Shown: positions 8,550-45,364, counted from the first letter of the stretch. The stretch: 64,000 nt of DNA from Bacilli bacterium (GCA_017511805.1 JAFWJA010000013.1:594-64593), one strand, 5' to 3'. Numbers and translations are program-made. The notes: a model not told the origin generated them from the letters alone.

Positions 8550-8590
8550 AAAAAGCCACTATTTTTCATTATAAAAAAATTGCTATTTTA

Positions 8591-8617
8591 AAAGACTATA
8601 AAAATAGTCTTTTTTTT
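8591..8617 (+). terminator. Rho-independent terminator after murF
   Basis: Stem aaagactat/atagtcttt with a 4-nt loop, followed by a T-run. Confidence 0.65.
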
Positions 8618-8659
8618 AGTAAAAAAATCGACAAAATTCTTTATAAAAACAAGCAAATA

Positions 8660-8668
8660 TGGTATAAT
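8660..8668 (+). promoter_or_regulatory. Extended -10 promoter element (TGgTATAAT) at the head of the SipW/giant-protein locus
   Basis: tggtataat lies just downstream of the murF terminator and upstream of the RBS ggtaggag. Confidence 0.45.
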
Positions 8669-8684
8669 TTTATATGGTAGGAGT

Positions 8685-9830
8685 ATGAAGAATATGGGGA
8701 TTATAAAAAATAAGACAAATTATTTATTTTTATCACTATTTTTAGTATATATTTTCTTATATAGAATGCTTATAATTCCTAAGTTTTTAAAGTATTCAGA
8801 AAGTATTACTTCTGTCTTTTTAATTTTTATGTTTATTTTATCAATTATGTTTTATGGATTTAAAAAGACAACTAATACTAATTTTAAAAAGAATGTTCTT
8901 AGAAAAGTATTAAAAATAACTGGTATATATTTCTTACTAATTTATTTTATTGGATTATTTACTGGTTATTTATCTAATGCGTATTCATTAAATCCTATAT
9001 CAATCTTTAATAATATATTTTTTCAAATAATTATTATAGTAATGATTGAATTAATTAGAAGTAATTTTATAAATTACAACAAAGGTGATAAAAGAATAAT
9101 AGCGTTACTTGTTATATTACTTACTATTTTTGAAATAATACTTAATTTTAAAATGGAATATATAAGTAATACAGAAGCTATATTTAAATTTATTACTTCT
9201 AAAATATTACCAATAGCTTTTAAAAATTATATGTGTTCATATTTAACATATTATACTGATTTTGAAACTTCACTTGTTTATTCATTAATAACTGGTTTAT
9301 ATAAATATTTAGTTCCAATAGAACCTAATTTAGATAATTTATTAATTTCACTTATAAATATTTTAATTCCGTTTATTATAGTTATGAGTGTTTCTAAATA
9401 TAGATTTAATTATGATGAGACAAGAGAAAATATAGTGAGCAAGAAATATGTTAGAAAGTCTGATATACCATTAATAATTCTCCTTGGAATATTAGTTTTA
9501 CTAGTATTTGGAGTTGGACCATATAAAGTGGTTGGTATAAGATCCGGTTCTATGTCACCTGCGATTAATGTTGGAGATGCAGTTTTGTTAGAACAAAATG
9601 TATCTAAAGAAGATTTAAAAGAAAATGATATAGTTGCTTATACAAATAAAAATAATGAAACTGTTGTTCATAGAATAATAGCAATAAATAAAGATGGTAC
9701 TTATATAACTAAAGGTGATCATAATAACACTGCTGATAAAGATTATGTAAGTATAGATCAAATAACAGGGAAGGTTAAATTTAGAATACCATATATAGCT
9801 TATCCTGCTGTATATTTTGATAGGAGATAA
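8685..9830 (+). CDS. Fusion protein: polytopic membrane domain (about 8 TM, unknown family) plus a C-terminal SipW-type (ER/archaeal-type, Ser/His) signal peptidase I domain
   Basis: The C-terminal approx. 120 aa carry GIRSGSMSPAINVGDAVLL (Ser box), VVHRIIA (His where bacterial-type SPases have Lys) and TKGDHNNTADKD (GD.N box). The N-terminal approx. 260 aa are hydrophobic. The true start may be the ATG at 8694, which has better RBS spacing. Confidence 0.8.
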   Translation: MKNMGIIKNKTNYLFLSLFLVYIFLYRMLIIPKFLKYSESITSVFLIFMFILSIMFYGFKKTTNTNFKKNVLRKVLKITGIYFLLIYFIGLFTGYLSNAYSLNPISIFNNIFFQIIIIVMIELIRSNFINYNKGDKRIIALLVILLTIFEIILNFKMEYISNTEAIFKFITSKILPIAFKNYMCSYLTYYTDFETSLVYSLITGLYKYLVPIEPNLDNLLISLINILIPFIIVMSVSKYRFNYDETRENIVSKKYVRKSDIPLIILLGILVLLVFGVGPYKVVGIRSGSMSPAINVGDAVLLEQNVSKEDLKENDIVAYTNKNNETVVHRIIAINKDGTYITKGDHNNTADKDYVSIDQITGKVKFRIPYIAYPAVYFDRR

Positions 9831-9831
9831 C

Positions 9832-10395
9832 ATGAGTAAAAATTTTAAATTGTTTACTTTGTTTGTAGTATGTGCAATATCATTTATGATAGCGTTAATG
9901 ACATATTATAACGATGATAAAAACTATACAATCTTATTTATATTTTTATTAGTAGTTAGTTTAGGATATATGATTTATATAATGTTTCATAAAACTGATA
10001 AAAAAGCAGTTTACAAGAAAAAGATAAAAAAGATTATGAAAGTATATCATTCAAAACTAGTTAGAATAAATGATAACTATGAACTAACTAATGAAAATAT
10101 AGTTAAAGCAAAAAACTTAGAAGATATATTTGATTTATCAGAAGAATTTGATAGACCAATAGTTTATTTGGAAGAACCTGAATCTTGCTTATTCATTCTT
10201 CAATATGGAGAAGATATTTTATACTATATACTTAAACAAGATGAAGAAAAGGAAACTAAATTTGAAATAGCTCTAAGAAGTTATAAAGAAAGAAATAAGA
10301 AAACAGAAAAAGAATTATTATCGAATATTAATAAAACAACAATAATTCAATTAAAGAACAATAAGTTCTATAAAATAAAACCAATTAAAAAATAA
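9832..10395 (+). CDS. Small two-TM membrane protein, paralog of 35204..35755
   Basis: The tracked ORF starts at a TTG (9817). An ATG at 9832 follows an AGGAG at 9822-9826. It shares ...EDIFDLSEEFDRPIVY... and a ...NKTTIIQLKNNKFYKIKP C-terminus with the 35204 gene product. Confidence 0.7.
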   Translation: MSKNFKLFTLFVVCAISFMIALMTYYNDDKNYTILFIFLLVVSLGYMIYIMFHKTDKKAVYKKKIKKIMKVYHSKLVRINDNYELTNENIVKAKNLEDIFDLSEEFDRPIVYLEEPESCLFILQYGEDILYYILKQDEEKETKFEIALRSYKERNKKTEKELLSNINKTTIIQLKNNKFYKIKPIKK

Positions 10396-10416
10396 AAAGA
10401 AAGGTGCTGATGTAGT

Positions 10417-10975
10417 ATGAATAAATTAGTTAATTTAATCAGAAATAATAAAACTAAATTTATTCTTTTTGCTATGGCTATATTAATAGCAAGTATTACA
10501 TTAGTAACAGCTTTATTAAGTAGTAATTTAAATATTAATGGTACTGCTTATATTGAAGAAAGTAGTTGGGTTATTTATTTTACTGATGTTAGAAAGAGTA
10601 CTGATTCTGTTGCATCAGATAATGATGCTAGAATAGTTAATTATGAAAAAACTAAAATTGAATTTTCAGCAGACTTACATAGAGGTGGAGACTTTTATGA
10701 GTTTACAGTATATACAGTAAACGATGGATCTATAGATGCGATGGTAGATTCGATAGAAAAGAGTGCTTTAACAGAAGAACAATTAAAATACTTAGAATTT
10801 AATGTTACTTATGATGATGGAAGGCAAATTCAAAGATGTGATCCACTTGATGCTGGAACTAGAAGAAGAGTAAAAGCAATTGTTAAATATAAAGACGGAA
10901 TAGATATGAGTGATTATCCTGATGAAGATGTTCATTTAGATTTATTCTTTAATATAAACTATGTACAAAAAGATA
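10417..10975 (+). other. N-terminal signal-anchor plus approx. 185-aa module shared with the 187-aa and 226-aa proteins (tentatively TasA/camelysin-like)
   Basis: By-eye alignment of three stretches. First, LLSSNLNINGTAYIEESSW versus ALQTQLEINGNTTIDAVGW. Second, GGDFYEFTVYTVNDGSIDAMV versus PGDFYEFTVDIVNAGTIDAKI versus PGQYYAFSVDIKNEGNLDAKV. Third, the C-terminal D..L.L...I.YV[QE][KD]. Confidence 0.75.
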
Positions 10976-13900
10976 ATGCATGTACTCCACAAGATTTTGG
11001 TGATGAACATGTACTTACAATTGTTCCAAATGGAGGTATTTATCAAGGAAGAACAGATGAAATAAGAGTATATCTTGAAGAAGGAGATACTTATACATTT
11101 ACTGAACCAACTAGAGAATTCTATAACTTTACTGGTTGGGAAGGTGATCCTGCTGAAGGAACATATACACTAGAAGATAAAGTATTCACAATGGGTAAAG
11201 AAAATGTTACAATGACTGCTTCTTGGGAAGAAGGAGACTATGTAGCAAGAATAATGAATGTATATTATCCTTCAATTCAATTAGCATTTGATGCGGCTGG
11301 TAATACTTGGGAAGATAATACAGTATATTTATTAAAAGATACTACAGAAGATCCTACAAATAATACTGATGAAAGTTTTGTATTTAATTTAGGTGGACAT
11401 ACAGTTACAGGAACACTTACAAATAGTGTTGATGGTAATTTAACTATAGTAAATGGTAGATTTGAAAATGAAGATGAAAATGAAATAACTGTTAGAAACT
11501 ACGGTATACTTACTATGGGTGTTGATGATGATGATGTACAAGTAGAAAGTAGTATAGCTATTTGTGGTGAAACTATTGGATTACAAAATGAAGCTGGTAG
11601 TGAATTCTATTTCTATGATGGTTACTTACAAGCAGTACATGCTTTAGTAGGTGGATATACTGATAAAGCTGATGGTTACTATGTAATAGTTGATTATAGA
11701 AAATCTATTAACAAAGATAGAGTATACTTAGTTAAGAATAATAACAGAGCAGTTGCTAAAACGACTACTAATGGAGATTTATATTACTATAACTTACAAA
11801 GTGCTATAGAAGAAGTAGAAGGTAATAAAAAAGATAATCCATCTTTAACTGATTCAGATTATATTATAACTGCAATAAGAAGTTTTGAAGCTGCTTATGA
11901 AATAGATGTACATAATAATTCAAGAATATTCTTTGATACTGATGGTTATAATATAGATTTTGGTGAAAACATTACTAACGATGGATACTTTAATATTTAT
12001 AATGGACAAGATAGTATTAGTACATTAAAGATGGCTAAGACTATTGCAAATAACGGTTCATTAATAATTAATAATCTATTATTTGAAGAAACTACTAATT
12101 CAAATATTATTAATAATACTGGTACATTAGCAATAACTAATTCAACGTTACATTCAAAATATGGTAATGCAGTTAATAATAGTGCAAATGGTACTGTTAG
12201 TTTAGATAATAATACATCATTAAAATCTGATGATGGATATGGATTAAATAACTCAGGTTCTAATTTAACAATAGGTGCAGGAACAATATATGGATTTAGT
12301 AATAGTGGTACTGCTACTATAACAGGTGGAAATTATATTACATTTGTTGATAAAACACAAAATGAATATAATACAAGATATACTAATGGTATATATAATA
12401 CTGGAACTATTAATATGAATGGTGGTAGTGTTCAAAATAATATATCTACTAATCCAATTGTTAATAGAGGAACATTTAATTATTATGATGGTGATTTAGA
12501 TTCTAGTACTACATTAATTGAAAACTATTATGGTACAGTTAATATTTTAGATAATGAAATATCTACAACAGGAACTGCAATTAATAATGGTACAGTTAAT
12601 ATTAATGGTGGTGATTTAATATCAGATACTACTACAATTACTGGATCAACTAATGTAACTGTTACATCAGGTGAAGTTAAATCAAATGAAGGAACAGCAA
12701 TTAGTATTTCTGGTTCAGTAAATGTAAATGGTGGTACTGTTACAGGTAAGACACAAGCTATTTCAACTAATAACTTTACTATTAGTTCAGGAACAGTTAC
12801 TAGTGAAGGGGCAGGTGTTAGTGCTAGTTCATCAAATGTATCAGGTGGAACAATCACTTCATCAGGTGTAGGTTTATCAACAACTAATTTAAGTATGACA
12901 GGTGGTACTATTACTTCTACTGATAATACAGGTGTATATGTATCTAATGATGGTACAATTACTGGAGGTAATATTAATGGTGATCTATATGGACTATATA
13001 CAAATAATAAAATTACTTTAGGTAGTAATGATGAAAATATAAGTACAGATAGTCCAGTTATTACTGGTAATAGTTATGGTCTATATATGAATGGAAATGA
13101 CAACAATTTCTATGATGGATTTATTAAAGGTCAAGTAGATAGTTATGAAGGAGAATTTACTGGTTTACCATTAGGAGGATTTGTTGCTAGAGAAGAACAA
13201 ACAATTTCTGATACTAATTATGTAGTAAGTTATGTTTCATTCTATGAAAACTGGTTAAGAGTAGGAGAAAATGAATATAATACAATAGATGCTGCTAGTG
13301 ATGCTATTACTGGAGAATCTGGAACAATAGAAGTTATTAAAGATGCTGAAATTAACTTTGAACAAACATTTAAAGCTAATTCAACAAAAGTAATTACTTT
13401 TGATTTAAATGGTCATAATATTACAACTACTCAAAATATTACAAATAGTAGTTTAGTAAATTTAACTATTACTGATAGTGGTAATGTAGCATTTAATGCT
13501 AAAACAGGTTTTATAAATAATGGAAATGTCACTTTTGAAGGTGGAACTTATACTTCAACTAATCCATATATAGTTACAAATAATAATGTTGTTACAATTG
13601 ATGGAGCAACATTTACAACTAATAGAGATGTTATTAATAATGGTAGTCGTACATTAATAATTAATAGTGGAACTTTAAATGGTTCAACAGTAGTATCAAA
13701 TAGTTATGGTTCAGTTACTATGAATGGCGGTACTATTAATGCTACTAATTATGGTATTATTAACGGTTCATTTGAAATGAATGGCGGTACTATTAATAGT
13801 AATGACTATGGTACAGCATATACAACTGTTCATATAATAGATGGTACGATTCATACTACAAATACTGCAATCTTCTCATATGGTACAAGTACTAATATTG

Positions 13901-31900: not shown

Positions 31901-33594
31901 TTCATAATGATTCATATGCATATAGCAATATATTTGCTGAATTAAATAATTTAAAGATTAGAACTATAAAGAAAAAATCTGAAAGAGAATATAGTCCAAG
32001 TTCTATAAATAATGGTGTAAGTACAACATTATTTATAAATAATAGTACATTAGATATAGAAAATGTTAACTTTGATGTATATAACCTAGTTGAAGGAACA
32101 AGTAATTCAGTATTAACAATTGATGGTTCAACTATTAAAGGAGATAATAAAGCAATTAATAGTTCAGGTGATATAACTGTAACTAATTCAAGTATTGTTT
32201 CTCCATATGGTATAGATTCTAAGAAAGACTTGGTATTAAGTAATTCATCAATTAGATCTACAAATCAAGGTATAATTAATTCTGGAACAATGACTATTAC
32301 TAATTCATCAGTTTCAGGAACATCATATGGTATATATGTTAATTCTTCTGGAAATAGTACAGTTACAAATTCAGTTATTAAATCTACATCAGTATCTGTT
32401 TATAAACAAGGTTCTGGATCAATAGATTTAACAAATGATACTATGACTGGTAGTGTTCAAAATAGTGGAGCATCAAGTACATTAACTGTTACTGGTGGAA
32501 GTATAACTGGTCAAATATCTAACTCAGGTACATCAACATATTCTAAAGTACCAATTACTTATACAAGCAATTATTACAATGCAGAAAACTTAATTAATAA
32601 CTCAGGTATATTAAACATGAATGAATCAGAAGTTACATTTAATAGTACTTATGCATCAGGTTCAAGTTATAGAACTAGTGCTCTATATAATACAGGAACT
32701 GTTGATTCATATAAGACTAAATATAATGTATTCCATACAAATGGTTATTATAAATGGATGATAGGTATTAATAATAGTGGTTTATTAACATCTAATAGAG
32801 ACTCAATTGAGATAACAGGAGCAGGTGCTTCATATGCAATCTTAAATGATACAAGCAATGATTGTACTATAACTAATATCAATATTAATTCTCATGATAA
32901 TGGTAGTGAAATATATGGTATTAGAAACTTAAGAGGTAAGATTAATCTTAATGGTGGTTCTGTTTCAATGAACAATAATACATTTACTCATGGTCTATAT
33001 ACTAGTGGTACAAGTAATACTATTGTTACAGATACAGTATTTACATTAACTAATAACTCTAATAACAGTAAAGCAATTTACATGCAAGATGATGGAGGTA
33101 CTGTTACAGTAGTAAGAGGTACATTTAGTGCAAGTGCTACTGGTGAAGCAGATGCTATATATATGGATAATGGTACATTAAATATTCAAGATGGTATATT
33201 TAACGCTAACTCTACTAGTGGAACAGCATATGGATTAAAGATGTCTAATGGTACTGCTACTATAGAAAAAGGAACTGTTAGTGCACATGGTACAAATGCT
33301 TATGGTATTTATATGACTAGAGGTACTTATACTCAAGGTATTCCAGATAATTCAGGATATGAAACAGCTGATGTATCAATTACTGATCCTCATATTGAGG
33401 CTATTGGTACAACAGAAGGTACTGGAATAAGTATGGGTTCAGGTTCATTCAATTTCTATGATGGTATTATTATAGGTTCAACTAGATCAAGAGTTGCGGG
33501 TGACATAGTAACTAATACAGATACAAACTTTCAAGTTAAGACAGATATAGATGAGAACAACTATAGTTACTCTATACTAGAATTTATAAAGTAG
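10417..33594 (+). CDS. Giant exported modular protein (7,725 aa): SipW-type signal-anchor and TasA-like module, Flg_new repeats, about 11 beta-helix-like modules, nine glycine-rich (ALK/LTK-GRD-like) domains, no C-terminal wall anchor
   Basis: Single uninterrupted ORF of 23,178 nt with an RBS aaaggtg upstream. Strong internal repeat structure. Ten F/Y-Y-D/N-G-x-[ILV]-x-G module caps at approx. 13108, 14353, 15448, 16861, 17359, 18097, 19825, 22144, 24468 and 33454. Nine W-G-A-[QS]-G motifs. Confidence 0.9.
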   Translation: MNKLVNLIRNNKTKFILFAMAILIASITLVTALLSSNLNINGTAYIEESSWVIYFTDVRKSTDSVASDNDARIVNYEKTKIEFSADLHRGGDFYEFTVYTVNDGSIDAMVDSIEKSALTEEQLKYLEFNVTYDDGRQIQRCDPLDAGTRRRVKAIVKYKDGIDMSDYPDEDVHLDLFFNINYVQKDNACTPQDFGDEHVLTIVPNGGIYQGRTDEIRVYLEEGDTYTFTEPTREFYNFTGWEGDPAEGTYTLEDKVFTMGKENVTMTASWEEGDYVARIMNVYYPSIQLAFDAAGNTWEDNTVYLLKDTTEDPTNNTDESFVFNLGGHTVTGTLTNSVDGNLTIVNGRFENEDENEITVRNYGILTMGVDDDDVQVESSIAICGETIGLQNEAGSEFYFYDGYLQAVHALVGGYTDKADGYYVIVDYRKSINKDRVYLVKNNNRAVAKTTTNGDLYYYNLQSAIEEVEGNKKDNPSLTDSDYIITAIRSFEAAYEIDVHNNSRIFFDTDGYNIDFGENITNDGYFNIYNGQDSISTLKMAKTIANNGSLIINNLLFEETTNSNIINNTGTLAITNSTLHSKYGNAVNNSANGTVSLDNNTSLKSDDGYGLNNSGSNLTIGAGTIYGFSNSGTATITGGNYITFVDKTQNEYNTRYTNGIYNTGTINMNGGSVQNNISTNPIVNRGTFNYYDGDLDSSTTLIENYYGTVNILDNEISTTGTAINNGTVNINGGDLISDTTTITGSTNVTVTSGEVKSNEGTAISISGSVNVNGGTVTGKTQAISTNNFTISSGTVTSEGAGVSASSSNVSGGTITSSGVGLSTTNLSMTGGTITSTDNTGVYVSNDGTITGGNINGDLYGLYTNNKITLGSNDENISTDSPVITGNSYGLYMNGNDNNFYDGFIKGQVDSYEGEFTGLPLGGFVAREEQTISDTNYVVSYVSFYENWLRVGENEYNTIDAASDAITGESGTIEVIKDAEINFEQTFKANSTKVITFDLNGHNITTTQNITNSSLVNLTITDSGNVAFNAKTGFINNGNVTFEGGTYTSTNPYIVTNNNVVTIDGATFTTNRDVINNGSRTLIINSGTLNGSTVVSNSYGSVTMNGGTINATNYGIINGSFEMNGGTINSNDYGTAYTTVHIIDGTIHTTNTAIFSYGTSTNIEGGTITSDNSTAVDGRRYVSISGGTITGTIGVYHTTYSDGYYIYQDNMSITGGTITGTTGEGIITYCGTLTYSDATTTGNTNGLVVSYDTNNYGATAVILFGTIKGNTNGILNNDTLVLGTNDETISKTIPLIMGGDYGVYNNDNRNATFRFFDGILKGLEDGHYGLVTEIPDASMVVDDYEFIDRVEYQTEYIGEQADWIRVGTRTFNSINKAADYIGESGTMYLMHDVSISFDQELPTGKDITFDLQGHSLMMTNSLKVSGTGTIIDSVGNGGITNIKQNVFNVTGNLIVNSGTYTATNTNTISNSGTTTINGGTIRSTKDGALGIYTTGTTNVTGGSIDAPRGIENNGGTLNVSGGTVSGTNGIAITTNATTSISGSAYVVSSTTDGVYVSNGETTISGGTIKSLGGTAIHQNDYYNSTLNVTGGEIEGNYNGITSGTGTTNISGGHIVGITNVGINAGGTNYITGGTIEGATYGVYSNGTTTLGNNDGTISIDEPSIKGELYGLYIYSGTVNFYDGILKGITDAYKNEITNIPDRTEIFNDVERIDNYDYKTAYLLTESVIAINTTTNEEYTNLQDALDEAKTGETVKLLANVPLYYEVINNNDDPIILDMNGFRITTNKRIINNKNLTIKNDGENDSFIRTSSGINLITNTETLNVYNVEIINNSSSVYVINNTGTLSLTESKVTGINDISSSNSVTLDHSIISSSNIAINTSGSLNVTGGSISGSYYSVYANNNKTNTLSECTITGTYYNQGGNSTTFNYVTMNSSIQNYSSTITANGSVFNYSILNAGTFTLQNNSTLNGVISQNSGTLSAINSTINSSSDRVIYNSGTMNINNTNVNVDRDYGDSRIFNNNGTLNITNGSTISGGASTTGASYMGIYSYGSGNATIEDSNIILNSRSNVYGVYVDSTNSHVTIKTGNIEVTGSTSYGAYLSAGTFTMGEVEVGEHSGTEDADVSQTNPKVQSIGRAQGIGVKHNNANFEFYDGIVWGSKYSKPDITTLVELNYEVTTYVDMDNGYEYSVLEFMKHDYQDSVAILNNVYYRDVQSAIDKCESPNDEILLLRSTSENTLNIPEGASVKINLNGYSITTKVTNNGTFNIYNGSLQSFDEVTVTNNGTLIIGKNDGTISSTNVRIISESTAIQNNGTVKMYDGYIQGVPSINGTIDEIPNLSRIYTEVTDQMERKYLQSLSEEAIISGETKLIITIDPNGGSYNGSKEVQDVYENYHVPYTLSTPIKNGCTFIGWEISDPSVLSGTGTEQDPYVITLELSDITLKAKWSINDDVVAQIGNEYYTTVMSAIEDAKDNDTITILKDVTEDVTNNKNVTIDLNNNTITGAFINNGILRLINGVIENANGTGLVNNKTLTMGERDGVVVTDSVKIMGTTLGLEQNGSFNFYDGYIEGDVAMLGRTNSVPNGYFLYNERNVIKNCQRVYLIGNPANAVAVIEEGGTQYFFSLQDAINTATVSGSEIFIVRDFEATYTITVDEGADILINMNSYNITTGNDITNNGTLKIYDNSENKGSITSARTITNNGTLTIEDISITESNTDNIAINSVANSSLNIKNANITAQNGYAVKSLGNLKLEGDYNLDSNDYALYAGGTTEDITTGNIAGMELYSDLNIGGTVNVISKTAAIAIRQPVNLTIDGGYYKTINSNSGIYNEGGSSTITMNSGTIEAYYGFSCSSGTTTYTLNGGTITASDQGARMYSDNCNLTVNDGSITGTNYGVYTYGQSNKININGGTITATSYDGIRDDRSKNTTSSDGEYPYFSKINVLGGTVTGARYGIYEIYSRTTIGNAEVKTTSTSNSYYAIYNGDWSNLYINDGAFVNAPYACGIYCSGGVDILGGRVVTGHNNGYGIYSNFMGLNMSGGSIEATGNSSYGIYSNSNYFKMNMTGGSITSKNIGVALVNSGNYTREFTMTGGSIQGDTYGVYQTQNFTTTIGNAEDELSTTIPYITGGLYGYYKTAGTAYFYNGRLRGLTYGYNDIFNNIRTKMDIAEVTETSDIDQNIKTYSVSEYSSTPESNTPKAGAGYAKITYLDDSGSVYTQNQQFDYPYMGSEDTFIPLDSGRYSIEVWGAQGGTYDSTYYGGYGGYSYGEIELSAGETLYINVGGQGSYTGSIVDGGYNGGGSGRYRGGSGGGATSIATASGLLSELENNKASILIVAGGGGGGAYTNSANGSAGGSGGGFEGADSIINARGDNVPNGFGKGGTQDHAGCASNSKNYCGAFGQGGTSTMDTSYYGSGGGGGGYYGGGTGYYDGGAGGSGYNGNSRLTNKVMYGYSVPMTNDVWINNYLVERAGFIEVNGETFNSFDDASEYIIDNLNGVGTMNIVKDATVQEVSTISGTTITLDLQGHVLTTTKTINNEADLTVEDGSTLKTGKIEDNKDNAFTNKGSITLDGVYVKSTGYNVINGSTGTGSIVLKNGSTLEGARGILLNAAQSVTMSDTTIIATTDAIRSDAAATVTINSGTITSSDVGIRLQTDNNTLTINDITLTGTNYGVYNYGQSSVITINDGTITANNYDGVRDDRSKSTTTSNNEHIYFSKININGGTVTAGRYAVYDIYSYVNVSNAELKSTSTSYAVYNYDWGIFSLNDGAFINSPNGDGVFLNSSIYIHDGSRIYAGHTSAYGIGGYYINVVMDGGSIETPGSNAYGIRDTQYECNINISGGSITSGNIGVGLNNSGNYTRQFTMTGGSIQGDTYGVYQTQNYATTIGSEEAELSTTIPYITGGLYGYYKTAGTSNFYNGRLRGSTFGYNDEFNNIRTKKTIVTEYESGTIDSTLTYSTDQVSEYPISNYAKAENGYVKLTYLGETVGTCTNNQVYEFDYTGEEETFTVECPGDYKIETWGAQGGSYSETYRGGYGAYSTGTISLVLDEVLYINVGEQGYHCEVNSGRCEGTYNGGGVAIAGNQDSSTGGGATSIALSSGTLYELGQNSLQSDVIIVAAGGGGTGQTGYGGEGGGLLGSSGTASNLDYNHLYGGTGASQTTGGTRESGGLCGSSGLNSTGQFGLGGASADSSCGGSGGGGGYYGGGGSLRQHNGAGGGSSYIGHSRLSDAVMYGYKVQSSAGVWVNNYLGDMEGFLQVGSEVFNSFEDANAYIVENLSGTGTINVIKDATITESITFPESTNITVDLKGHKLITSNTIINNSSLVIQDTVGNGVIHNKKGDTIQNNLNLTVDGAKLKTSADAVIWAKTGTGVLLIKGNSVLEGSRAIVLDSAQKLTVSDTYMHTTSDAIRSNVANANITINSGTNIDAGDLGIRLQNSGNTLVVNGGTIKGTNYGIYSYGATNTITINDGIITGTNNDGIREDYTSSGGTLSVLGGTVTGGRYGIYCYGELLTVENAEVKTTSANRDHYAIYTSWGTTHINDGAFINAPDASGIWAEDDLYIEAGSRIFAGNRSAYGIAERWSNTFVINGGTIETPGYNAMGIYSYDNLVNLTMNSGTITSGHIGLYLNTSSNYTRVVNIYGGSISGETYGIYQPQNYTTTIGDNESELSTTVPYITGGLYGIYNTAGTVNLYSGRLRGQTYGYYNAINDIREEKVIKEEIEGNEDIGVTSTYSVNTSSSTATAKIPKAGAGYVRITYLDETNATYTQNQTFEYSYLGSEETFTPLVTGNYSLEVWGAQGGSINSSYLGGYGGYSYGEIELTANETLYINVGGQGSYGSSSIPGGYNGGGIGTGGYCNGTRYAASGGGATHIATSSGVLSSLENDKSSILIVAGGGGGSSSYGAYGSGGSGGGFKGANGQFTLSGHSYSQYATGGTQTSGGIFGNSYALQKNVVSGSFGQGGNLDTRSCSEGSGGGGGYYGGGSALFGTGGGGSGYIGSSRLTNKAMYGYSVPITYGSWINNYLSDPKQTILNVEQDVTYSNLQTALDEVEDGETLQLLDDISITYDLETQENINFTLDMNGYNLDTTKQITNNSNMKIINSTVDSTEEEEIVVETSESIYYYNGTKYNNLYTENTYQVDQATFETNYIDLPNDGSGYYIVYTDTIDLSQYNTIIVKKTNFVGTRAKFAENPNLVGNVGDTISPTWQNISGDIYAADISSYNDGNKKFYIDADSGENAGYVYYIAFSSKTLSEVTEDSSFVDNPTVTYSKAFNYTGNEQVFTAPEDGVYKLESWGASGGDAIWSDSVRYPGGYGGYSTGTISLHKGDKLYINVGGAGTDDCREDCDGGYNGGGIASGSDGAGYGAIYVITAGSGGGATSIATETGLLEDLESKKSSIVLVSGGGGGSLIHRYENAENWWQGYGGSAGGFESTAGAIPVAGRSISPTVATQTTPGTGYSQSSYYGQGSFGKGQDGNLHKDVANCAGAGGGYYGGGASGYTSTSGGSSYINTSVLNNAYMMCYNCTESNTTETKTISTTNTASTPTSEYANEGDGYVLITSINAKENNDQTFNYTGSEEEFTVPVSGIYKLETWGAQGGAAICNNGDCESTPGYGGYAVGEIYLSQGTKLYINVGGKGGKGTLNACSTGGYNGGGTGTNDGGSCGSTEDNEASGGGGGATSIATTSGLLSTLENNKNSILIVSGGGGGASYNYDSGSGGGAFGGITSTTNQTEVSQTTGYAFGQGQNATGAGDSDGVGGGGGGYYGGYSNNVSFKSAGSGGSGYIGNSRLNTKHMACYDCDISSESSSKTISVTDVSETPVANYAKIGDGAAKISFVRTTSTVEFDYTGDVQQFVAPETAKYKIEAWGAQGGSTDLNSGGKGAYTSGIIDLNKDDVIYVYVGATPGDDSRSVAAYNGGGLSSGEPEYSSGGGGATDIRLVSGTWNDQSSLASRIMVAGAGGGAYTYELSNFKFDGGAAGGLEGATGEYSNTCASTGGTQTSGGTCSSNNSTAGSFGQGGNSVGGRASGGGSGYYGGAARYDAPGSGSGAGGGSSYISGYRGSIAITSGSDLTPKTGCTSGTNDIECSYHYSGKIFTNSKMIDGASTMPTHDGTSTMVGNSGDGYAKITKVEASPITEFDYTGDVQEYTVPATGTYKIEAWGAQGASQTDTNGGAYTSGTITLTKDTKLYIYVGEKGNYTRTATFNGGGVGGLSNESNPDDLGNSGGGATDIRLVKGTTWDDSSSLASRIMVAGGSGGGADSLYETAGEYSIAGGLTGGSGGYYSGHSYVGQNGQGGTQTAGGAAGVNHYSASGTNTSGSFGQGGSSQSTSAYKGSGGGGGGYYGGGAGGSTMSGGAGQGGGGGSSYISGYKGSVAITSEQDLTPKSGCSDGTTNVECSYHYSGNVFKNAIMKDGASTMPTHDGTSTMVGNSGDGYVKITFIENDPVTEYGYTGTAQEFTAKKTGKYKIEAWGAQGSSRPDNRSGGPGAYTSGILDLNQGDTLYVYVGGTGASEKNNGAGNTIPYGEYAFNGASGGNYTCYSYNNTTAYNNYGGGATDIRLVSGNWDDSTSLASRIMVAAGGAAANENADGVPGGALTGYDGIHGTGGTQTSAGGPRSGSFGKAGIPVYGGYRCNGSIASGAGSGYYGGGAYDQDRDNNGMGSAGSGSSYISGYKGSVAITSASDTSPKTGCTNGTTDVTCSYHYSGKVFTNTSMRDGASSMPTHDGEGTMTGNEGDGFVKITYIEEKEEVRPVDFDYTGSEQVFTAPKTGTYKLETWGAQGGGPGTINNKVALGGYGGYSTGEITLNAGDTLYINVGGKGTYGRSDPQTGGYNGGGNVSNRHGDSNEVRASGGGATSIATSTGTLYELGQNSKQGDVVIVAGGGGGSHLNSVSSSYSYGGSGGGFIGGGSSGVGDGTYNLNNGGTQLEVGSSSTSWGVSDYGDFGKGASASQNGAGAGGGYYGGGVGVRGSGGGSGYIDTSVLANAKMVMYQTDQGYKSTEPETYTDITSDVNEEAVSDNAKSGDGFARITYVPDNGENITEEVISVTTVTNFTYDSVLNNQYDEMVVSNGKLISTVANSGNASVTYYNNPIRVTTTKVNNMTIMGSIDYYNNKDDNSLGTLYVGLSKTNSNNIDFDYYDEYEIDSTTAKTIDFEFTPDEVGDYYFKIILVHNDSYAYSNIFAELNNLKIRTIKKKSEREYSPSSINNGVSTTLFINNSTLDIENVNFDVYNLVEGTSNSVLTIDGSTIKGDNKAINSSGDITVTNSSIVSPYGIDSKKDLVLSNSSIRSTNQGIINSGTMTITNSSVSGTSYGIYVNSSGNSTVTNSVIKSTSVSVYKQGSGSIDLTNDTMTGSVQNSGASSTLTVTGGSITGQISNSGTSTYSKVPITYTSNYYNAENLINNSGILNMNESEVTFNSTYASGSSYRTSALYNTGTVDSYKTKYNVFHTNGYYKWMIGINNSGLLTSNRDSIEITGAGASYAILNDTSNDCTITNININSHDNGSEIYGIRNLRGKINLNGGSVSMNNNTFTHGLYTSGTSNTIVTDTVFTLTNNSNNSKAIYMQDDGGTVTVVRGTFSASATGEADAIYMDNGTLNIQDGIFNANSTSGTAYGLKMSNGTATIEKGTVSAHGTNAYGIYMTRGTYTQGIPDNSGYETADVSITDPHIEAIGTTEGTGISMGSGSFNFYDGIIIGSTRSRVAGDIVTNTDTNFQVKTDIDENNYSYSILEFIK
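20055..20810 (+). repeat. Glycine-rich domain copy 1 (WGAQGG type)
   Basis: YSIEVWGAQGG (tgg at 20137)...LYINVGGQG...GGGATSIA...ILIVAGGGGGGA...GSGGGGGGYYGGGTGYYDGGAGGSGY. Confidence 0.8.
22375..23150 (+). repeat. Glycine-rich domain copy 2
   Basis: YKIETWGAQGG (tgg at 22453)...LYINVGEQG...GGGATSIA...IIVAAGGGGTG...GGSGGGGGYYGGGG. Confidence 0.8.
24700..25470 (+). repeat. Glycine-rich domain copy 3
   Basis: YSLEVWGAQGG (tgg at 24781)...LYINVGGQG...GGGATHIA...ILIVAGGGGGS...GSGGGGGYYGGGS. Confidence 0.8.
26200..31490 (+). repeat. Back-to-back array of six glycine-rich domains (copies 4-9)
   Basis: W-G-A-[QS]-G codons start at 26275, 27169, 27988, 28867, 29800 and 30718, a spacing of 819-933 nt. 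Each unit begins F[DN]YTG..[QE].F..P..G.YK[IL]E.WGA and ends G[DE]G[YFA].[KRL]I[TS]. Confidence 0.85.
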
Positions 33595-33602
33595 GTGATA
33601 AT

Positions 33603-34397
33603 ATGAAGAAGATGAAAGAAATTTACAAAAAATTTATTGCTTATGCTAGTAAAAAAGAAAACTTTGGAAAGGTATTACTAGGAATATTACTTTTAATATT
33701 CCTAGTACTTACCATTATTTATTTTATCGGTACTGGTAGAATAAGTAAGATAGAAGAAGAAAAGATTACTAGAGAAAGTGCAAAATATTTAAGTTATATA
33801 GAGGATATAACAGAGTCTGATAGTGATGAAATAGATAAGTACATTATATTTGCTTTAGATTATTCTTTATATAATGAGAATAATTCAAGTATGACTTCTG
33901 AAGAAATATCAAAATTTATAAAAACTAATTTAAATATAGATGTTGATAAAGAAAAGATTATTAATTTAGGTATTACAGAAGAAATGCTTGCAAAGAATAT
34001 TACTTATGATGCCGGTAAAGATATATATACCATTAATCAAAAAGAAGTAACTGGTAAACAAATAAGTGAGACTAAAATTATTTATTATAAGTTAAATAAT
34101 ATTAAAAAAACTACAAAGTCTTCTTATAAAGCATTTTATGATAAATATGTTATTACTAATCCATATGATATGTTAAATTATTATATTGATAAGAATGCTG
34201 AAGAAGATAATAAAGAAAAAATAGTAGATATTACAGCAATAAGAAATTATTTACTTGGTTCTAGTAGTGTTTCAAATGTTAAAGAGATAATAAAGAATAA
34301 TGAAGATGATTTAAGTAAATATGCTGAAACAGATGGTAGTGTTACTATATCTTATAGTCTAGTTGGTGATGAACTAGTTATAGATGGAATTAATTAG
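33603..34397 (+). CDS. Single-pass membrane-anchored protein, unknown family; paralog of the next gene
   Basis: 264 aa with one N-terminal TM (VLLGILLLIFLVLTIIYFIG). It shares IIFALDYSL..., ...LGITEEMLAK... and ...YDKYVITNPYDMLNYY with the 34406 product. The gene starts 8 nt after the giant ORF stop. Confidence 0.7.
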   Translation: MKKMKEIYKKFIAYASKKENFGKVLLGILLLIFLVLTIIYFIGTGRISKIEEEKITRESAKYLSYIEDITESDSDEIDKYIIFALDYSLYNENNSSMTSEEISKFIKTNLNIDVDKEKIINLGITEEMLAKNITYDAGKDIYTINQKEVTGKQISETKIIYYKLNNIKKTTKSSYKAFYDKYVITNPYDMLNYYIDKNAEEDNKEKIVDITAIRNYLLGSSSVSNVKEIIKNNEDDLSKYAETDGSVTISYSLVGDELVIDGIN

Positions 34398-34405
34398 GTG
34401 ATATT

Positions 34406-35170
34406 ATGAGAAAAAAGAAAAAGAATGATATGATTAATATTGGTAAGTATTCTATCAAAAAAACAATATTGTTAAATATACTAGTTTTATTATTAATAGT
34501 CAGTTTAATATTTATATTAATATATAATTTTAAATTAACTAATCTTGAAAGAGTAAAAATAGAAGAATTTAATAAAAGAACAGAGAATTACATGGAAGAT
34601 TATGTAGATTCTGATGATGATGGTAAATATATAATTTACGCAATTGATTATTTAAGTAATGTAAATAATCAAAATGAAATTTCAGTAAAAGAAGTATTAG
34701 ATGTTATTAATGATACTTTTAATGAAGAGATAGATGAAAAAAAATTATATAGCATTGGTATAACTAATAAGATGCTAGAAAAAGGAATTGTATTAGATGA
34801 TAAAAATAAAAAGTATATTATTAGTAATGTTAGAACTAGACAAGATATCGCAGAAGAAAAAATAATAAAATATGAACTTATTAATATATCTAAAAAAAGT
34901 AGAAATAAGTTTGTGTTAACATATAAAAAATATGTAATAGATGATCCCTATCAAATGCTGAATTATTATAATAATTCGGATAGTAAAACATATGATGAAA
35001 AAATAAGTAAGACTATTATTTCTTATTTAAAAGGTGAATCTGATGTTTATAGTGTAAAGAGTATTATTAATAAGGATAATATAGATAAATTTGGTAAGGA
35101 AGATGGAAAAAGAGAAATTACTTTAATTGTTAATAGTAATGATAAATTAACTATAGAAAAAATTAAATAA
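34406..35170 (+). CDS. Single-pass membrane-anchored protein, unknown family; paralog of 33603..34397
   Basis: 254 aa with an N-terminal TM. Carries IIYAIDYLS..., ...IGITNKMLEK... and ...YKKYVIDDPYQMLNYY. Confidence 0.7.
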   Translation: MRKKKKNDMINIGKYSIKKTILLNILVLLLIVSLIFILIYNFKLTNLERVKIEEFNKRTENYMEDYVDSDDDGKYIIYAIDYLSNVNNQNEISVKEVLDVINDTFNEEIDEKKLYSIGITNKMLEKGIVLDDKNKKYIISNVRTRQDIAEEKIIKYELINISKKSRNKFVLTYKKYVIDDPYQMLNYYNNSDSKTYDEKISKTIISYLKGESDVYSVKSIINKDNIDKFGKEDGKREITLIVNSNDKLTIEKIK

Positions 35171-35203
35171 ATATGTTATCATATTATATAATAGGAGTCA
35201 TGT

Positions 35204-35755
35204 ATGAAAAATAATGTATTCAAAAGTGGTTTTATATCAATATTGTTTGTAATAATATTAATTATTTTTCTAATTATGGGTAAAATAGAATTTGCTTTAA
35301 TAACAATAGTTTTACTTATAATATGTTTATTAATATTCTTTATGTCAGTAAGAACTATTAACAAACCTAATGGATATTTTTATGATTATATTCATAATAT
35401 CCTGGAACAAAATGAAAATATATTAGTAGAAATTGATAAATTTCCTAGTTTTACAAATAAGAAGATATATAGGACTACAACAATAGAAGATTTATTTAAT
35501 TTAGAAAAAACAGTAAAAAAACCAATTTATTATACTTATAATAATGATTCTTATGATTTTATTCTTATAGATAATAAAAAGATATATGTTAATACTATAA
35601 AGAAAGATGAAAAAATAATATCTTGTTTAGATTTATATCTTAAAGAGTTAAATGATAAAAAAAATGCATATAACTTGATTGAGGATTTAGACAAGACGAC
35701 TATAATAAAGGTCGATAAGGATAAAGAATTTATTGTTTATCCTTTGAATAAATAA
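35204..35755 (+). CDS. Small two-TM membrane protein, paralog of 9832..10395
   Basis: AGGAG at 35193-35197 precedes the ATG at 35204. Carries ...IEDLFNLEKTVKKPIYY... and a ...DKTTIIKVDKDKEFIVYP C-terminus. Confidence 0.7.
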   Translation: MKNNVFKSGFISILFVIILIIFLIMGKIEFALITIVLLIICLLIFFMSVRTINKPNGYFYDYIHNILEQNENILVEIDKFPSFTNKKIYRTTTIEDLFNLEKTVKKPIYYTYNNDSYDFILIDNKKIYVNTIKKDEKIISCLDLYLKELNDKKNAYNLIEDLDKTTIIKVDKDKEFIVYPLNK

Positions 35756-35783
35756 AAAATAGATTACGAAGGGAGTAAAAAAA

Positions 35784-36347
35784 ATGAATAAGAAATCTAA
35801 TTTTTTAAAGAAAAGATCGTTTGTAATTGCATTATTTCTATTATTAATTGCAGGAATTACATTAGGATATTCTGCATTACAAACACAACTTGAGATTAAC
35901 GGTAATACAACAATCGACGCAGTAGGATGGGATATCCATTTTGCTAATGTAAATGTAACACAAGGATCAGTAGCTATTGGAGCTGGAAACCAAGCAGCAA
36001 CTATTGATTCAGAAGATACAACTAAGATGAGTTATAACATAACATTAAAAAATCCAGGAGACTTTTATGAATTTACAGTTGATATAGTTAATGCTGGAAC
36101 AATTGATGCTAAAATAAGTGAAATTGTTGCTGATCAATTAACAGCAGCTCAAGATGTATATACTAATTATACAGTTACATATACAAATAATACTATTCCT
36201 GCCGCAGAAGATAAACTAGCTCATGGACAAACTAAAACTTTAAAAGTTAGAATTGAATTTGATACAGATATAGATCCAGATGATTTACCTACAGAAGGTG
36301 CTAATCTTGATTTAGACTATCAAATACTATATGTTCAAGATAGATAA
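35784..36347 (+). CDS. Small exported protein consisting only of the signal-anchor plus the shared TasA-like module (candidate major subunit)
   Basis: 187 aa with RBS gaagggag. Collinear with giant-protein residues 1-185. A strong terminator follows immediately. Confidence 0.8.
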   Translation: MNKKSNFLKKRSFVIALFLLLIAGITLGYSALQTQLEINGNTTIDAVGWDIHFANVNVTQGSVAIGAGNQAATIDSEDTTKMSYNITLKNPGDFYEFTVDIVNAGTIDAKISEIVADQLTAAQDVYTNYTVTYTNNTIPAAEDKLAHGQTKTLKVRIEFDTDIDPDDLPTEGANLDLDYQILYVQDR

Positions 36348-36374
36348 AAAAACATATTTAATATGTTTTTTTTT
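36346..36374 (+). terminator. Rho-independent terminator after the 187-aa module gene
   Basis: Stem aacatat/atatgtt extended by A/T pairs, then a T-run of at least 8. Confidence 0.7.
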
Positions 36375-36416
36375 GTCTTATTTTATGGTATTATATAATA
36401 TATAATAGGTGATAAA

Positions 36417-37097
36417 ATGAATACAAAAAAGAATAATCGAAATAGATTTATATATGCCTTTTCTTTAATAGTAGTTTTAATACTTGTATCTATTATATAT
36501 GCATCTTTAGCAGTTAATATAGGTATTAAAATCAATAAAGAAAAAGCTTTAAATCCTGATACATCAACTCCTATAGATGTGGTTCCAATTCCAGAACCAG
36601 AACCAACTGGTACTAGAAAGAGAAGAGTTATACCAACACCAACACCAATTCCAGAACCAGATATACCTGTAATAGTTCCTGATGATATTAATTGGAAAAT
36701 AGAATTTGATAATTTAGTTGTTAAAAGTGGTTCAGTACAAGCTGTAACTGATGCTCATATATTATCTAGTAAAACTGATATAGCATATGAAATAATATTA
36801 ACAAAACCAGGTCAATATTATGCATTTAGTGTTGATATTAAAAATGAAGGTAATTTAGATGCTAAAGTATATGAGTCGGTTAAAACAGGATTATCTAGTA
36901 TGCAAACTAAATATTTAACATATGATGTTACATATAATGATGGAACACCTATATCTGTAGATGATGTGTTAGAAGCAGGAACTAGAAAAAAAATAAATGT
37001 AATTGTTAAGTTTAATGATGATGCTTCAGAAGATGATTTACCTGATTATAGTGAAACATTAAAATTAACTTATAAGATTACATATGTAGAGAAGTAG
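36417..37097 (+). CDS. Exported or anchored protein: signal anchor, Pro-rich linker, shared TasA-like module
   Basis: 226 aa. TM is FIYAFSLIVVLILVSIIYASL. The linker PIDVVPIPEPEPTGTRKRRVIPTPTPIPEPDIPVIVPDD lies within approx. 36546-36685. The module that follows aligns with the 187-aa protein and the giant N-terminus. Confidence 0.8.
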   Translation: MNTKKNNRNRFIYAFSLIVVLILVSIIYASLAVNIGIKINKEKALNPDTSTPIDVVPIPEPEPTGTRKRRVIPTPTPIPEPDIPVIVPDDINWKIEFDNLVVKSGSVQAVTDAHILSSKTDIAYEIILTKPGQYYAFSVDIKNEGNLDAKVYESVKTGLSSMQTKYLTYDVTYNDGTPISVDDVLEAGTRKKINVIVKFNDDASEDDLPDYSETLKLTYKITYVEK

Positions 37098-37105
37098 GTG
37101 ATAAT

Positions 37106-38272
37106 ATGGATATACATAAGAAAAATAGAGTTATTATTTCTAGTATGATATTTTATCTAATATTATTTTTCACTTTAATATTCCTTTTATTACCTAATTA
37201 TGCGACATTAATAAATGGTATATTTGTACTTGCTTTAACAGTATCATCATTTCTAATGTTTCATTATAAAAAACTAGAAGTGAATGAATATGAAAGTAAA
37301 ATAACTAGATTAGTATTTATATCTATACTGGTATTCTTTACAATTATATATTTATTAGGAATATTTACTGGTTATGGAAGAAGTGTATTTTCAGTTGATT
37401 TTATTTCAATAATGAAAAATGCATTTATTCCTTTAACAACTGTTATATTATTAGAGTTATTTAGATATATGTTTATATCTAATAATAAAGGTAATAAACA
37501 CGTAACTAGAGTAATAACAATATTAATAATATTTTTAGATATTGCAATTAATTTATATAGATTTGATTTAACTATATCTAATATATTTATATTTTTAACA
37601 GTAACTGTATTACCACTAGTATTTAAAAATATAATGCTTAGTTATATTACAAAGAATGTTAATTATGTTCCTTGTTTAATATATGTAATACCATTATGTT
37701 TATATAAATATATAGTATTATATAAACCATTACTAGGTAATTATTTGAGTTCTGTATTATTCATCGCATTACCTGCATTAATATATATTTATTCTTCAAG
37801 AATAATATCTAGTAAAATAGAAGGTAAAAAAGGAATGAGTGTTCTAAGAGTAGTTAGAATATTTGTATTAGATATACCTTTAATACTATGTTTTACTATA
37901 TTTATAGGTTTAATATCTGGTTACTTTAAATATCATCTAATTGGAGTAGAAAATAGTACTATTTCTTACATAAAAAGAGGAGATGCGATAATGATAGATA
38001 AATCTTATTCATATAGAAAATATGAAAAAGGTGATATTATTGCATATAAAGATGGTAAGAAAAATATAATTGCGACAGTATCTAGGGTAGAAAAAGATAA
38101 CTATAATAACATAAAAGTATATATTACAACTGTAATAAATACTGAATCAAAAGATACTTATAAATTAATTGAAGAAGATAATGTTCTAGGTAAATATGTT
38201 AACTTTAAAATTGATTATATTGCTAAACCAACTGTTTGGTTTAAAGAACATGTTACAGATAATTTAAATTAA
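37106..38272 (+). CDS. Paralog of 8685..9830: polytopic membrane domain plus a degenerate SipW-like domain (probable pseudo-peptidase)
   Basis: The N-terminal domain aligns (GIFTGYGRSVFSVDFISIMKNAF...LLELFRYMFISNNKGNK versus GLFTGYLSNAYSLNPISIFNNIF...MIELIRSNFINYNKGDK). In the C-terminal domain the His box VVHRII is replaced by ATVSRV, and the GDHN box is absent. Confidence 0.75.
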   Translation: MDIHKKNRVIISSMIFYLILFFTLIFLLLPNYATLINGIFVLALTVSSFLMFHYKKLEVNEYESKITRLVFISILVFFTIIYLLGIFTGYGRSVFSVDFISIMKNAFIPLTTVILLELFRYMFISNNKGNKHVTRVITILIIFLDIAINLYRFDLTISNIFIFLTVTVLPLVFKNIMLSYITKNVNYVPCLIYVIPLCLYKYIVLYKPLLGNYLSSVLFIALPALIYIYSSRIISSKIEGKKGMSVLRVVRIFVLDIPLILCFTIFIGLISGYFKYHLIGVENSTISYIKRGDAIMIDKSYSYRKYEKGDIIAYKDGKKNIIATVSRVEKDNYNNIKVYITTVINTESKDTYKLIEEDNVLGKYVNFKIDYIAKPTVWFKEHVTDNLN

Positions 38273-38275
38273 GTT

Positions 38276-38303
38276 AAAAAGGACTAACAAAGTTAGTCTT
38301 TTT
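38276..38303 (+). terminator. Rho-independent terminator closing the locus
   Basis: Stem gactaac/gttagtc with loop aaa, then a T-run. Confidence 0.65.
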
Positions 38304-38304
38304 A

Positions 38305-38313
38305 TGTTATAAT
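38305..38313 (+). promoter_or_regulatory. Extended -10 element (TGtTATAAT) for miaB
   Basis: tgttataat lies 22 nt upstream of the ATG at 38335. A GGAGG RBS sits at 38325-38329. Confidence 0.5.
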
Positions 38314-45287: not shown

Positions 45288-45364
45288 GGCGATGTAGCTC
45301 AGTTGGCTAGAGCGTTCGGTTCATACCCGAAAGGTCGTGGGTTCGACCCCCTCCGTCGCTACCA
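45288..45364 (+). tRNA. tRNA-Met (anticodon CAT), elongator type, CCA encoded
   Basis: Cloverleaf folded by hand: acceptor GGCGATG/CGTCGCT, D-arm GCTC AGTTGGCTA GAGC, anticodon arm TTCGG-TTCATAC-CCGAA, T-loop TTCGACC, 3' ACCA. It closely resembles the Bacillus elongator tRNA-Met as I remember it. A lysidine-modified tRNA-Ile2 cannot be formally excluded. Confidence 0.85.

Follow-up and report, generated by a model that had tools for sequence, protein, structure and literature searches.

A probable AbpX-type surface-fibre locus with a giant predicted adhesin and a degenerate signal peptidase paralog in an uncultured Bacilli bacterium

The window analysed here is a stretch of 64,000 nucleotides from an uncultured low-GC gut-type Bacilli bacterium (GCA_017511805.1, JAFWJA010000013.1:594-64593), in which nine open reading frames (ORFs) lie on the + strand at 8685-38272 between two hairpin terminators. 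The nine ORFs make up four paralog families, denoted A/A', B/B', C/C'/C'' and D/D'. The locus is a new, conserved variant of the recently described AbpX-type locus, and its likely product is a surface fibre of the AbpX branch, built by donor-strand complementation, together with the machinery dedicated to processing it. Its features are listed below, where TM stands for transmembrane and HMM for hidden Markov model.

8590..8617, + strand: hairpin with U-run after the Mur ligase gene (-8.8 kcal/mol, z -2.46 vs. shuffles), which marks the upstream operon boundary
8640..8668, + strand: promoter-like site, TTTATA-17-TATAAT, its -10 box extended by TG, 17 nt 5' of the A start codon
8685..9830, + strand: A, 381 aa, polytopic membrane domain, TM anchor and signal peptidase I
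9817..10395, + strand: B, 192 aa, DUF5305 protein without ectodomain, two adjacent TM helices
10417..33594, + strand: C, 7,725 aa, predicted tip adhesin with the C-module at its N-terminus
33603..34397, + strand: D, 264 aa, bitopic, N-terminal TM helix
34406..35170, + strand: D', 254 aa, D paralog (D HMM, E 6e-76)
35204..35755, + strand: B', 183 aa, two-TM DUF5305-like protein (B HMM, E 5.5e-64)
35784..36347, + strand: C', 187 aa, AbpX-like, candidate major fibre subunit
36343..36377, + strand: intra-operon hairpin with U-run and AT-only stem, immediately 3' of the C' stop codon
36417..37097, + strand: C'', 226 aa, AbpX-like with a Pro-rich spacer (C HMM, E 6.6e-62)
37106..38272, + strand: A', 388 aa, A paralog with a degenerate peptidase site
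38277..38303, + strand: hairpin with U-run (-11.6 kcal/mol, z -4.09 vs. shuffles), which ends the operon

The nine co-oriented genes had been proposed in a first-pass annotation, and all of them were recovered on the + strand with unchanged coordinates. Within the operon, the intergenic spacing ranges from -14 nt (a 14-nt overlap) to 69 nt. The paralog families it had named are confirmed by pairwise E values of 2e-10 to 6e-45, with A and A' 31% identical (E 6e-45), B and B' 28% (E 2e-10), D and D' 35% (E 5e-28), and the three C-modules of C, C' and C'' sharing 37-39% mutual identity (E 1e-26 to 2e-32). The membrane topologies also agree with hydropathy and with the structure models of C' and D: a polytopic arrangement for A and A', two TM segments for B and B', and a single N-terminal one for each of C, C', C'', D and D'. 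The adjoining upstream gene, which had been read as murF, indeed encodes a Mur ligase, and both flanking hairpins with their U-runs fold better than shuffled sequences. The AT-rich stems of both flanking hairpins have too few G-C pairs for a consensus terminator scan, which called neither on the + strand (the downstream one was called on the - strand). The promoter-like site has the top score within 8000-11000, with 10/12 matches, which is a consensus match only.

The C-module, which is shared by C, C' and C'', was compared with known families at several levels. None of the 287 database relatives of C' carries a name or a Pfam domain, and neither C', C'' nor the C N-terminus matches PF12389 (TasA/camelysin) at E <= 0.1. 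No NCBIfam family was found for C', C'' or D' at E <= 0.1, and B', C', C'', D and D' otherwise gave sub-threshold Pfam and NCBIfam matches well under the curated cut-offs. An AlphaFold2 model of C', computed from a 43-sequence alignment (predicted local distance difference test, pLDDT, 87), consists of a helix that forms the signal anchor, ~25 disordered residues and a beta-sandwich. The top three matches of this model in a Foldseek search of the PDB are the TasA fibre (8aur), the Sulfolobus Saci_0406 thread (7pnb) and the Pyrobaculum bundling pilus (7ueg), all of which are donor-strand-complementation filaments. Using the single AbpX sequence of Pyrodictium abyssi, taken from the supplement of bioRxiv 10.64898/2026.01.04.697558, hhalign gave 79% (E 1.5e-5) against the C profile; using a family profile of AbpX and 12 homologs from loci fetched in the analysis, it gave 99.0% (E 4.6e-18) over 172 columns. 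In addition, AbpX itself and the C HMM match the same ORFs, which stand upstream of A-type peptidases in loci from archaea, Chloroflexota and Clostridia. By sequence comparison, the C-module belongs to the AbpX branch of the TasA superfamily, with homology over its full length, and the earlier proposal of the C proteins as fibre subunits is in line with these profile and fold comparisons. Against TasA itself (the TasA sequence used being approximate), hhalign gave 0.9% over 23 columns, in which only the PGD...NxG motif aligns. A search of the C profile against PDB sequences, in a copy without the AbpX entries 9SJ2 and 9RHP, returned only chance matches to collagenase PKD-like domains (E >= 0.6).

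The small subunits resemble AbpX in composition as well. Mature C' has an isoelectric point of 4.05 and an Asp+Glu content of 15.9%, compared with 4.69 and 15.8% for C'' and 4.05 and 14.9% for AbpX. The alignment puts the AbpX processing site, between TYA and QW, onto the position between GYS30 and A31 of C', and the corresponding predicted cleavage sites lie between GYS and A in C', between VTA and L in C, and between AYA and S in C''. The 14 residues that follow the C' site (family consensus ALSTTLNINGTxxI) align with the AbpX donor strand, and the predicted C' donor strand is ALQTQLEINGNTTI. C' looks like the major fibre subunit, because it combines a strong ribosome-binding site (GGGAG, upstream of the gene) with a U-run hairpin 3' of the gene. 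This hairpin (36343-36377), around which an 86-nt stretch folds better than shuffles (-17 kcal/mol, z -3.2), may act as a partial terminator that would raise C' output relative to C'' and A'. Its position is reminiscent of attenuators 3' of major pilin genes. C'' differs from C' by a Pro-rich spacer of ~45 aa between its AYA-SL-type strand and the jelly roll; its orthologs carry spacers of 45-70 residues that are Pro/Glu/Lys-rich or of low complexity, and all of them are encoded directly upstream of A'. C'' is a candidate for a base or adaptor subunit.

The C-terminal ~125 residues of A match TIGR02228, the archaeal/endoplasmic reticulum (ER)-type signal peptidase I family, at 92 bits (cut-off 51.85), and the closest solved relatives in a PDB search are human SEC11C and SEC11A (E 1e-13). 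The peptidase domain (aa ~256-381) contains Ser289-Met, His329-Arg, Gly-Asp345 and Asp351, and the catalytic Ser, His and Asp columns are invariant in A and all ~45 full-length orthologs, an arrangement that is not the bacterial Ser/Lys dyad. A is thus predicted from its sequence to be an active archaeal/ER-type (S26B) signal peptidase I. The first-pass annotation had called this domain S26B/SipW-type, which holds in the broad sense; the score against the SipW equivalog NF046067 is 68.8 bits, under its cut-off of 190.

A genome scan with the A alignment as query, restricted to one genome per species, returned 80 loci (related loci are denoted here by L and a number), of which 47 encode the polytopic fusion, as judged by ORF length, and 33 encode an ordinary short SipW-type peptidase. 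A C/AbpX-like ORF is present in 42/47 of the fusion loci vs. 5/33 of the ordinary SipW-type peptidase loci. Approximately 45 fusion loci could be mapped by gene order, and the arrangement that recurs in them is one to seven small single-TM C/AbpX-like genes, followed by A and then by a two-TM DUF5305 gene. The gene families are therefore found together across many genomes. Two outcomes that would have refuted the first-pass reading, a peptidase score of A that fails for S26B/SipW and a lack of conserved co-occurrence, were thus both checked, and neither was observed. The bacterial hosts of the mapped loci are uncultured Bacilli, Erysipelotrichaceae, "Tenericutes", Clostridia and Anaerolineales (Chloroflexota), and the archaeal hosts are Bathyarchaeia, Thermoproteota, Archaeoglobaceae and Thermoplasmatales metagenome-assembled genomes (MAGs).

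At the catalytic positions, A' has Thr in place of Ser289, Ala in place of His329 and TVI in place of the KGD motif, and its TIGR02228 score of 33 bits is under the cut-off; Pfam gave no family for A' at E <= 0.1. A' is considered inactive because the catalytic Ser, His and K-G-D motif are lost, as had been suspected before. In L085, L088, L089 and L090, the A' ortholog is an intact ORF (392-405 aa) whose active site is likewise degenerate, with Glu122 and Arg125 kept. These two residues, which the A' of the window retains as well, lie together with Asn110 in one TM segment of A (aa 110-132, window 9012-9080), and, from archaea to Bacilli, all three show no or almost no variation. Hydropathy gives A at least 8 strong TM segments, the count being approximate, and the polytopic N-domain to which the three residues belong (~aa 1-255) shows no consistent Pfam match among 29 A-family members at E <= 1. 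Readings of this domain as CPBP/Abi or exosortase-like were dropped, as the alignment has no invariant His or Cys. Since the domain is kept from archaea to gut Bacilli and survives with its Glu and Arg in the catalytically dead copy, it probably has a job of its own beyond positioning the protease.

B matches PF17231 (DUF5305) with an E value of 2.4e-11 (43.9 bits vs. a gathering threshold of 29), but only over positions 117-209 of the 217 in the profile. On sequence grounds B is a truncated DUF5305 protein that retains the cytoplasmic domain and the second TM helix but has no ectodomain. B and B' had been regarded as a family not recognised before, a view that no longer holds because of this DUF5305 match. 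A weak Pfam match of B to SPC25 (E 0.002) is under the cut-off. In 10/10 diverse loci tested, the protein encoded after A is a DUF5305 protein; it is full-length in 7/10, and short forms, seen in the nearest relatives of the window, occur in L005, L007 and L010. B' itself is not detected by Pfam, and its DUF5305 link runs through B, with which its identity covers the cytoplasmic domain, and through its orthologs in L085 and L088-L091, some of which have precomputed PF17231 matches. B' is kept even where A' is lost (L091). In L010, the DUF5305 homolog at 11151-12059, which has no ectodomain, carries a long low-complexity C-terminal tail rich in Glu, Pro and Lys on the cytoplasmic side.

The giant protein C begins with a signal anchor and a C-module (aa 1-~195, nt 10417-11001; C-module HMM E 1.7e-61 on aa 6-185), which are followed by a Listeria-Bacteroides-type repeat at aa ~203-272 (weak Flg_new/TIGR02543 matches) and a long N/T/G-rich region. 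The C-terminal half contains eight stretches of ALK/LTK glycine-rich domain (PF12810, 920 bits), the best of which is encoded at nt 27961-28776, and no anchor motif was seen on reading the C-terminus. The repeats of C are divergent: Tandem Repeats Finder found none in the giant gene, and self-BLAST returned the self-match only. The window and related loci encode giant proteins of one build, 5,453-7,725 aa long, with an N-terminal C-module and ALK/LTK glycine-rich domains. Within the giant gene, the GC content climbs from ~0.27 to 0.39 at window positions 20000-32000, where the glycine-rich region has 20-27% Gly; because the two coincide, the rise is attributed to coding composition rather than to foreign DNA.

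In D, a TM helix at the N-terminus is joined to an ectodomain of ~215 aa, which is acidic and alpha/beta in fold (AlphaFold2 pLDDT 88). A profile search of 1.8 billion representatives gave a family of 150 members, all of which are stand-alone proteins of ~240-310 aa. The D family was among the membrane families that the first-pass annotation could not recognise, and this part of the claim stands, as no description of the family was found. D is not called a VirB8 homolog, the NTF2/VirB8-like probability being at most 0.3, and the idea that D is a split-off DUF5305 ectodomain is unsupported, since L006-L008 have a short B and no D, and the model of D shows an alpha/beta fold and no beta-sandwich. 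All complete related loci contain D and D' as a tandem. The pair adjoins the giant gene in L005, L088, L089, L090 and L091, L087 having a single D at this place, and it follows A-B in L085.

The orders of these genes in the window and in its relatives are as follows.

Window: A-B-C-D-D'-B'-C'-C''-A'
L085: A-B-D-D'-C''-A'-B'-C'-C
L088, L089 and L090: C-D-D'-C''-A'-B'-C'
L005: C'-A-B-D-D'-C
L091/L092 (relative at ~60% identity): A-B-C-D-D'-B'-C', with C'' and A' both missing

The near-mirror order that had been noted is real in the window but is not conserved. Because the orders differ in L085, L088-L090 and L005, the mirror arrangement is incidental, and mirror symmetry was ruled out as a meaningful feature. 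The adjacency of C'' and A' is kept through the rearrangements, and the A'-C'' pair, B', the D/D' pair and the giant tip protein are conserved in at least 5 divergent Bacilli MAG lineages. In L091, an AAA ATPase gene on the opposite strand occupies the place of C''-A' (12777-14953), along with ORFs (231 and 66 aa) that match neither the A nor the C HMM. L085 has an Hpt/response-regulator gene (7230-8177) between a C-like 174-aa gene and A, and a second giant gene (>3,068 aa) upstream. Four to seven tandem small C-family paralogs stand upstream of A in L045 (2197-7282), L017, L020, L023 and L035, and such tandem C paralogs in some Bacilli MAGs suggest extensive subunit diversification.

AbpX was demonstrated by Sleutel et al. 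in January 2026 to be a strand-donation polymer and forms a clade of the TasA superfamily (bioRxiv 10.64898/2026.01.04.697558). The abpX loci, which were reported in Thermoproteota, Bacillota and Chloroflexota, encode AbpX subunits, a ten-TM SPase I (signal peptidase I), a DUF5305 accessory protein and tip proteins (bioRxiv 10.64898/2026.01.04.697558). The locus in the window shares with them the small, acidic subunits of jelly-roll type that carry a long signal anchor and, at the N-terminus, a donor strand, the SPase I on a polytopic domain, the DUF5305 accessory protein, the AbpX-like minor subunits and the tip protein. However, its donor strand lacks the calcium signature, in which position 2 is aromatic and position 4 acidic, and its DUF5305 protein is cut down to two TM helices and the cytoplasmic domain. 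Also unlike the abpX loci, it has a dead peptidase paralog with its own truncated DUF5305 protein and spacer-bearing subunit, the D/D' pair, and a tip protein with ALK/LTK glycine-rich domains that in loci of the window type is 5,000-7,700 aa long; neither an SLH or LPXTG anchor nor sortase or cyclic di-GMP genes were seen in the locus. The hosts of the window type are uncultured low-GC MAGs of the class Bacilli, and the preprint text makes no mention of paralogs, inactive peptidases or class Bacilli (bioRxiv 10.64898/2026.01.04.697558).

A further likeness is to the haloarchaeal Tat-fimbriae (Tafi), whose taf loci combine strand-donation pilins with a dedicated multi-TM signal peptidase and a DUF5305 protein; deletion of TafD blocks pilin processing and fibre formation, and TafG (DUF5305) is encoded alongside (PMC11821415, PMC12337348). 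The Tafi pilins, however, use Tat signals and belong to a different subunit clade, and TafD, unlike A, has four TM helices, an N-terminal peptidase domain and an Ig-like C-terminal domain (PMC11821415, PMC12337348). Because the core matches that of the preprint and Tafi likewise pairs a dedicated peptidase with DUF5305, the core of the locus is of a described kind. The earlier reading of a fibre locus with a dedicated SipW-type peptidase was therefore right in kind, whereas "undescribed" was only partly right: the statement that the combination matches no described system fails for the core, which is present in bioRxiv 10.64898/2026.01.04.697558. As far as found, the D/D' family, the conserved dead A' with C'', and the giant tip protein are undescribed. 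The SEC11 complex offers a further parallel, as the A peptidase domain is nearest to SEC11A/C among solved structures and the preprint remarks on an accessory-subunit parallel (bioRxiv 10.64898/2026.01.04.697558); unlike SEC11, the system in the window is substrate-dedicated and not general secretory, and the accessory-subunit resemblance is tentative.

In the mechanism proposed, C, C' and C'' would be inserted by Sec as signal-anchored precursors, which A, with the DUF5305 protein B, would cut after a small-x-small site placed by the AbpX alignment. The cut would free an amphipathic N-terminal beta-strand for the jelly-roll groove of the next subunit, so that the acidic C' could polymerise, as homology and fold suggest. 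C (7,725 aa) would join this fibre as a tip adhesin displaying Listeria-Bacteroides repeats, N/T-rich repeats and glycine-rich domains, a placement that is proposed because the same module stands at the C N-terminus. More speculatively, from linkage, C'', A' and B' might form a non-cleaving base/anchor module or an adaptor, and D and D' may, as partners linked to the giant gene, be holdases or scaffolds anchored in the membrane. A more specific version, which we regard as unlikely, makes A', B' and C'' a non-catalytic membrane module that holds an uncleaved or slowly released base subunit as a sortase-independent anchor or assembly platform for a strand-donation fibre in a Gram-positive cell, with the polytopic domain as the functional equivalent of an usher or polymerase for TasA-superfamily fibres and D/D' as dedicated membrane chaperones in the export of C.

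Several points weigh against the fibre interpretation. The host is uncultured, and the bacterial members are known from sequence alone. The Foldseek scores of the C' model are marginal (E ~1e-3, TM-score 0.27-0.40), and the D model has no significant PDB fold match, the weak NTF2/VirB8-like ones being at E >= 0.07 and probability <= 0.3. The cleavage site is placed by alignment alone, onto an AbpX site that is itself a predicted position. The AbpX donor-strand signature is absent, with Leu in 39/43 sequences at position 2 and Thr in 35/43 at position 4, and because of this replacement calcium-triggered assembly may not apply. C'' and A' appear dispensable for the core function, because both are missing in the close relative L091. 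No LPXTG, SLH or sortase was seen in the locus sequences read, in which no systematic search was made, and the retention of the fibre is left unexplained. The missing calcium-binding signature and the marginal structural matches to filament subunits, together with the fact that Pfam and NCBIfam scans recognised no anchor or usher-like component, would also suit a different reading, in which the shared N-terminal module is a sorting or processing tag by which A and B mature and release, or anchor in the membrane, the giant adhesin and two small matrix proteins, and no fibre is formed. We judge this reading rather improbable, as the homology to the strand-donation polymer AbpX is full-length and includes the strand region, C' has the acidic composition of AbpX, and small C paralogs stand in tandem, 2-7 of them, in many related loci, which is typical of major and minor pilin sets and hardly to be expected of a mere tag. 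A type IV pilin or a sortase pilus was rejected on the sequences read, which showed neither a class III signal motif nor LPXTG or sortase, again without a systematic search.

Loss of the catalytic residues in A' could instead mean that a segmental duplication left A' and B', and perhaps D', to decay without functions of their own and that only the A, B and C proteins matter, and the absence of A' and C'' from the relative of ~60% identity (L091/L092), which has unrelated genes in their place, would fit such decay. However, A' orthologs are intact at 388-405 aa in at least 5 divergent lineages, with ~30% identity to A and with E122/R125 kept, B' is retained where A' has been lost, and the C''-A' adjacency survives rearrangements. 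Intact ORFs, B' retention and this adjacency argue for purifying selection, and the reading as functionless leftovers is held to be quite improbable. Orthology to the Bacillus tapA-sipW-tasA operon was weighed too: there, an S26B-type peptidase is encoded with jelly-roll donor-strand-exchange subunits (PMC9674648), so that the logic of a dedicated S26B peptidase beside secreted jelly-roll subunits is the same, and the PGD...NxG motif is common to both. However, TasA is a PF12389 protein and the C-module is not, the hhalign comparison that gave 99% against AbpX gave 0.9% over 23 columns against the approximate TasA sequence, and A scores far under the SipW equivalog cut-off (68.8 bits vs. 190). 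SipW is, moreover, a simple peptidase without the polytopic domain of A, no protein like the TapA chaperone was found, and the TasA operon has neither a DUF5305 protein nor a giant tip protein. This orthology is extremely improbable and effectively refuted, the likeness holding at the level of the superfamily only.

If the fibre interpretation is right, the parts of the locus that it leaves unexplained bear on what assembles and anchors TasA-superfamily fibres. The papers on the thread, the bundling pilus and AbpX state that the assembly machinery or anchor is not known (for AbpX, bioRxiv 10.64898/2026.01.04.697558), and C'', A', B', D and D' offer concrete candidates for these missing steps of assembly and anchoring. 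The AbpX-type system would also be able to carry very large cargo in the form of giant adhesins. In uncultured animal-associated Bacilli, the fibre module heads adhesins of 5,000-7,700 aa, which may bear on attachment to hosts or particles.

Outside the operon, the downstream hairpin is followed by a promoter-like site (38284-38313) for a MiaB-like gene that lies downstream. Two large Flg_new (Listeria-Bacteroides repeat) proteins without a C-module are encoded 5' of the Mur ligase gene, at window positions 302-2584 and 4033-7152, and the former also has a tyrosine phosphatase family domain (Y_phosphatase3). The sole Rfam match in the window is a tRNA gene at 45288-45361.

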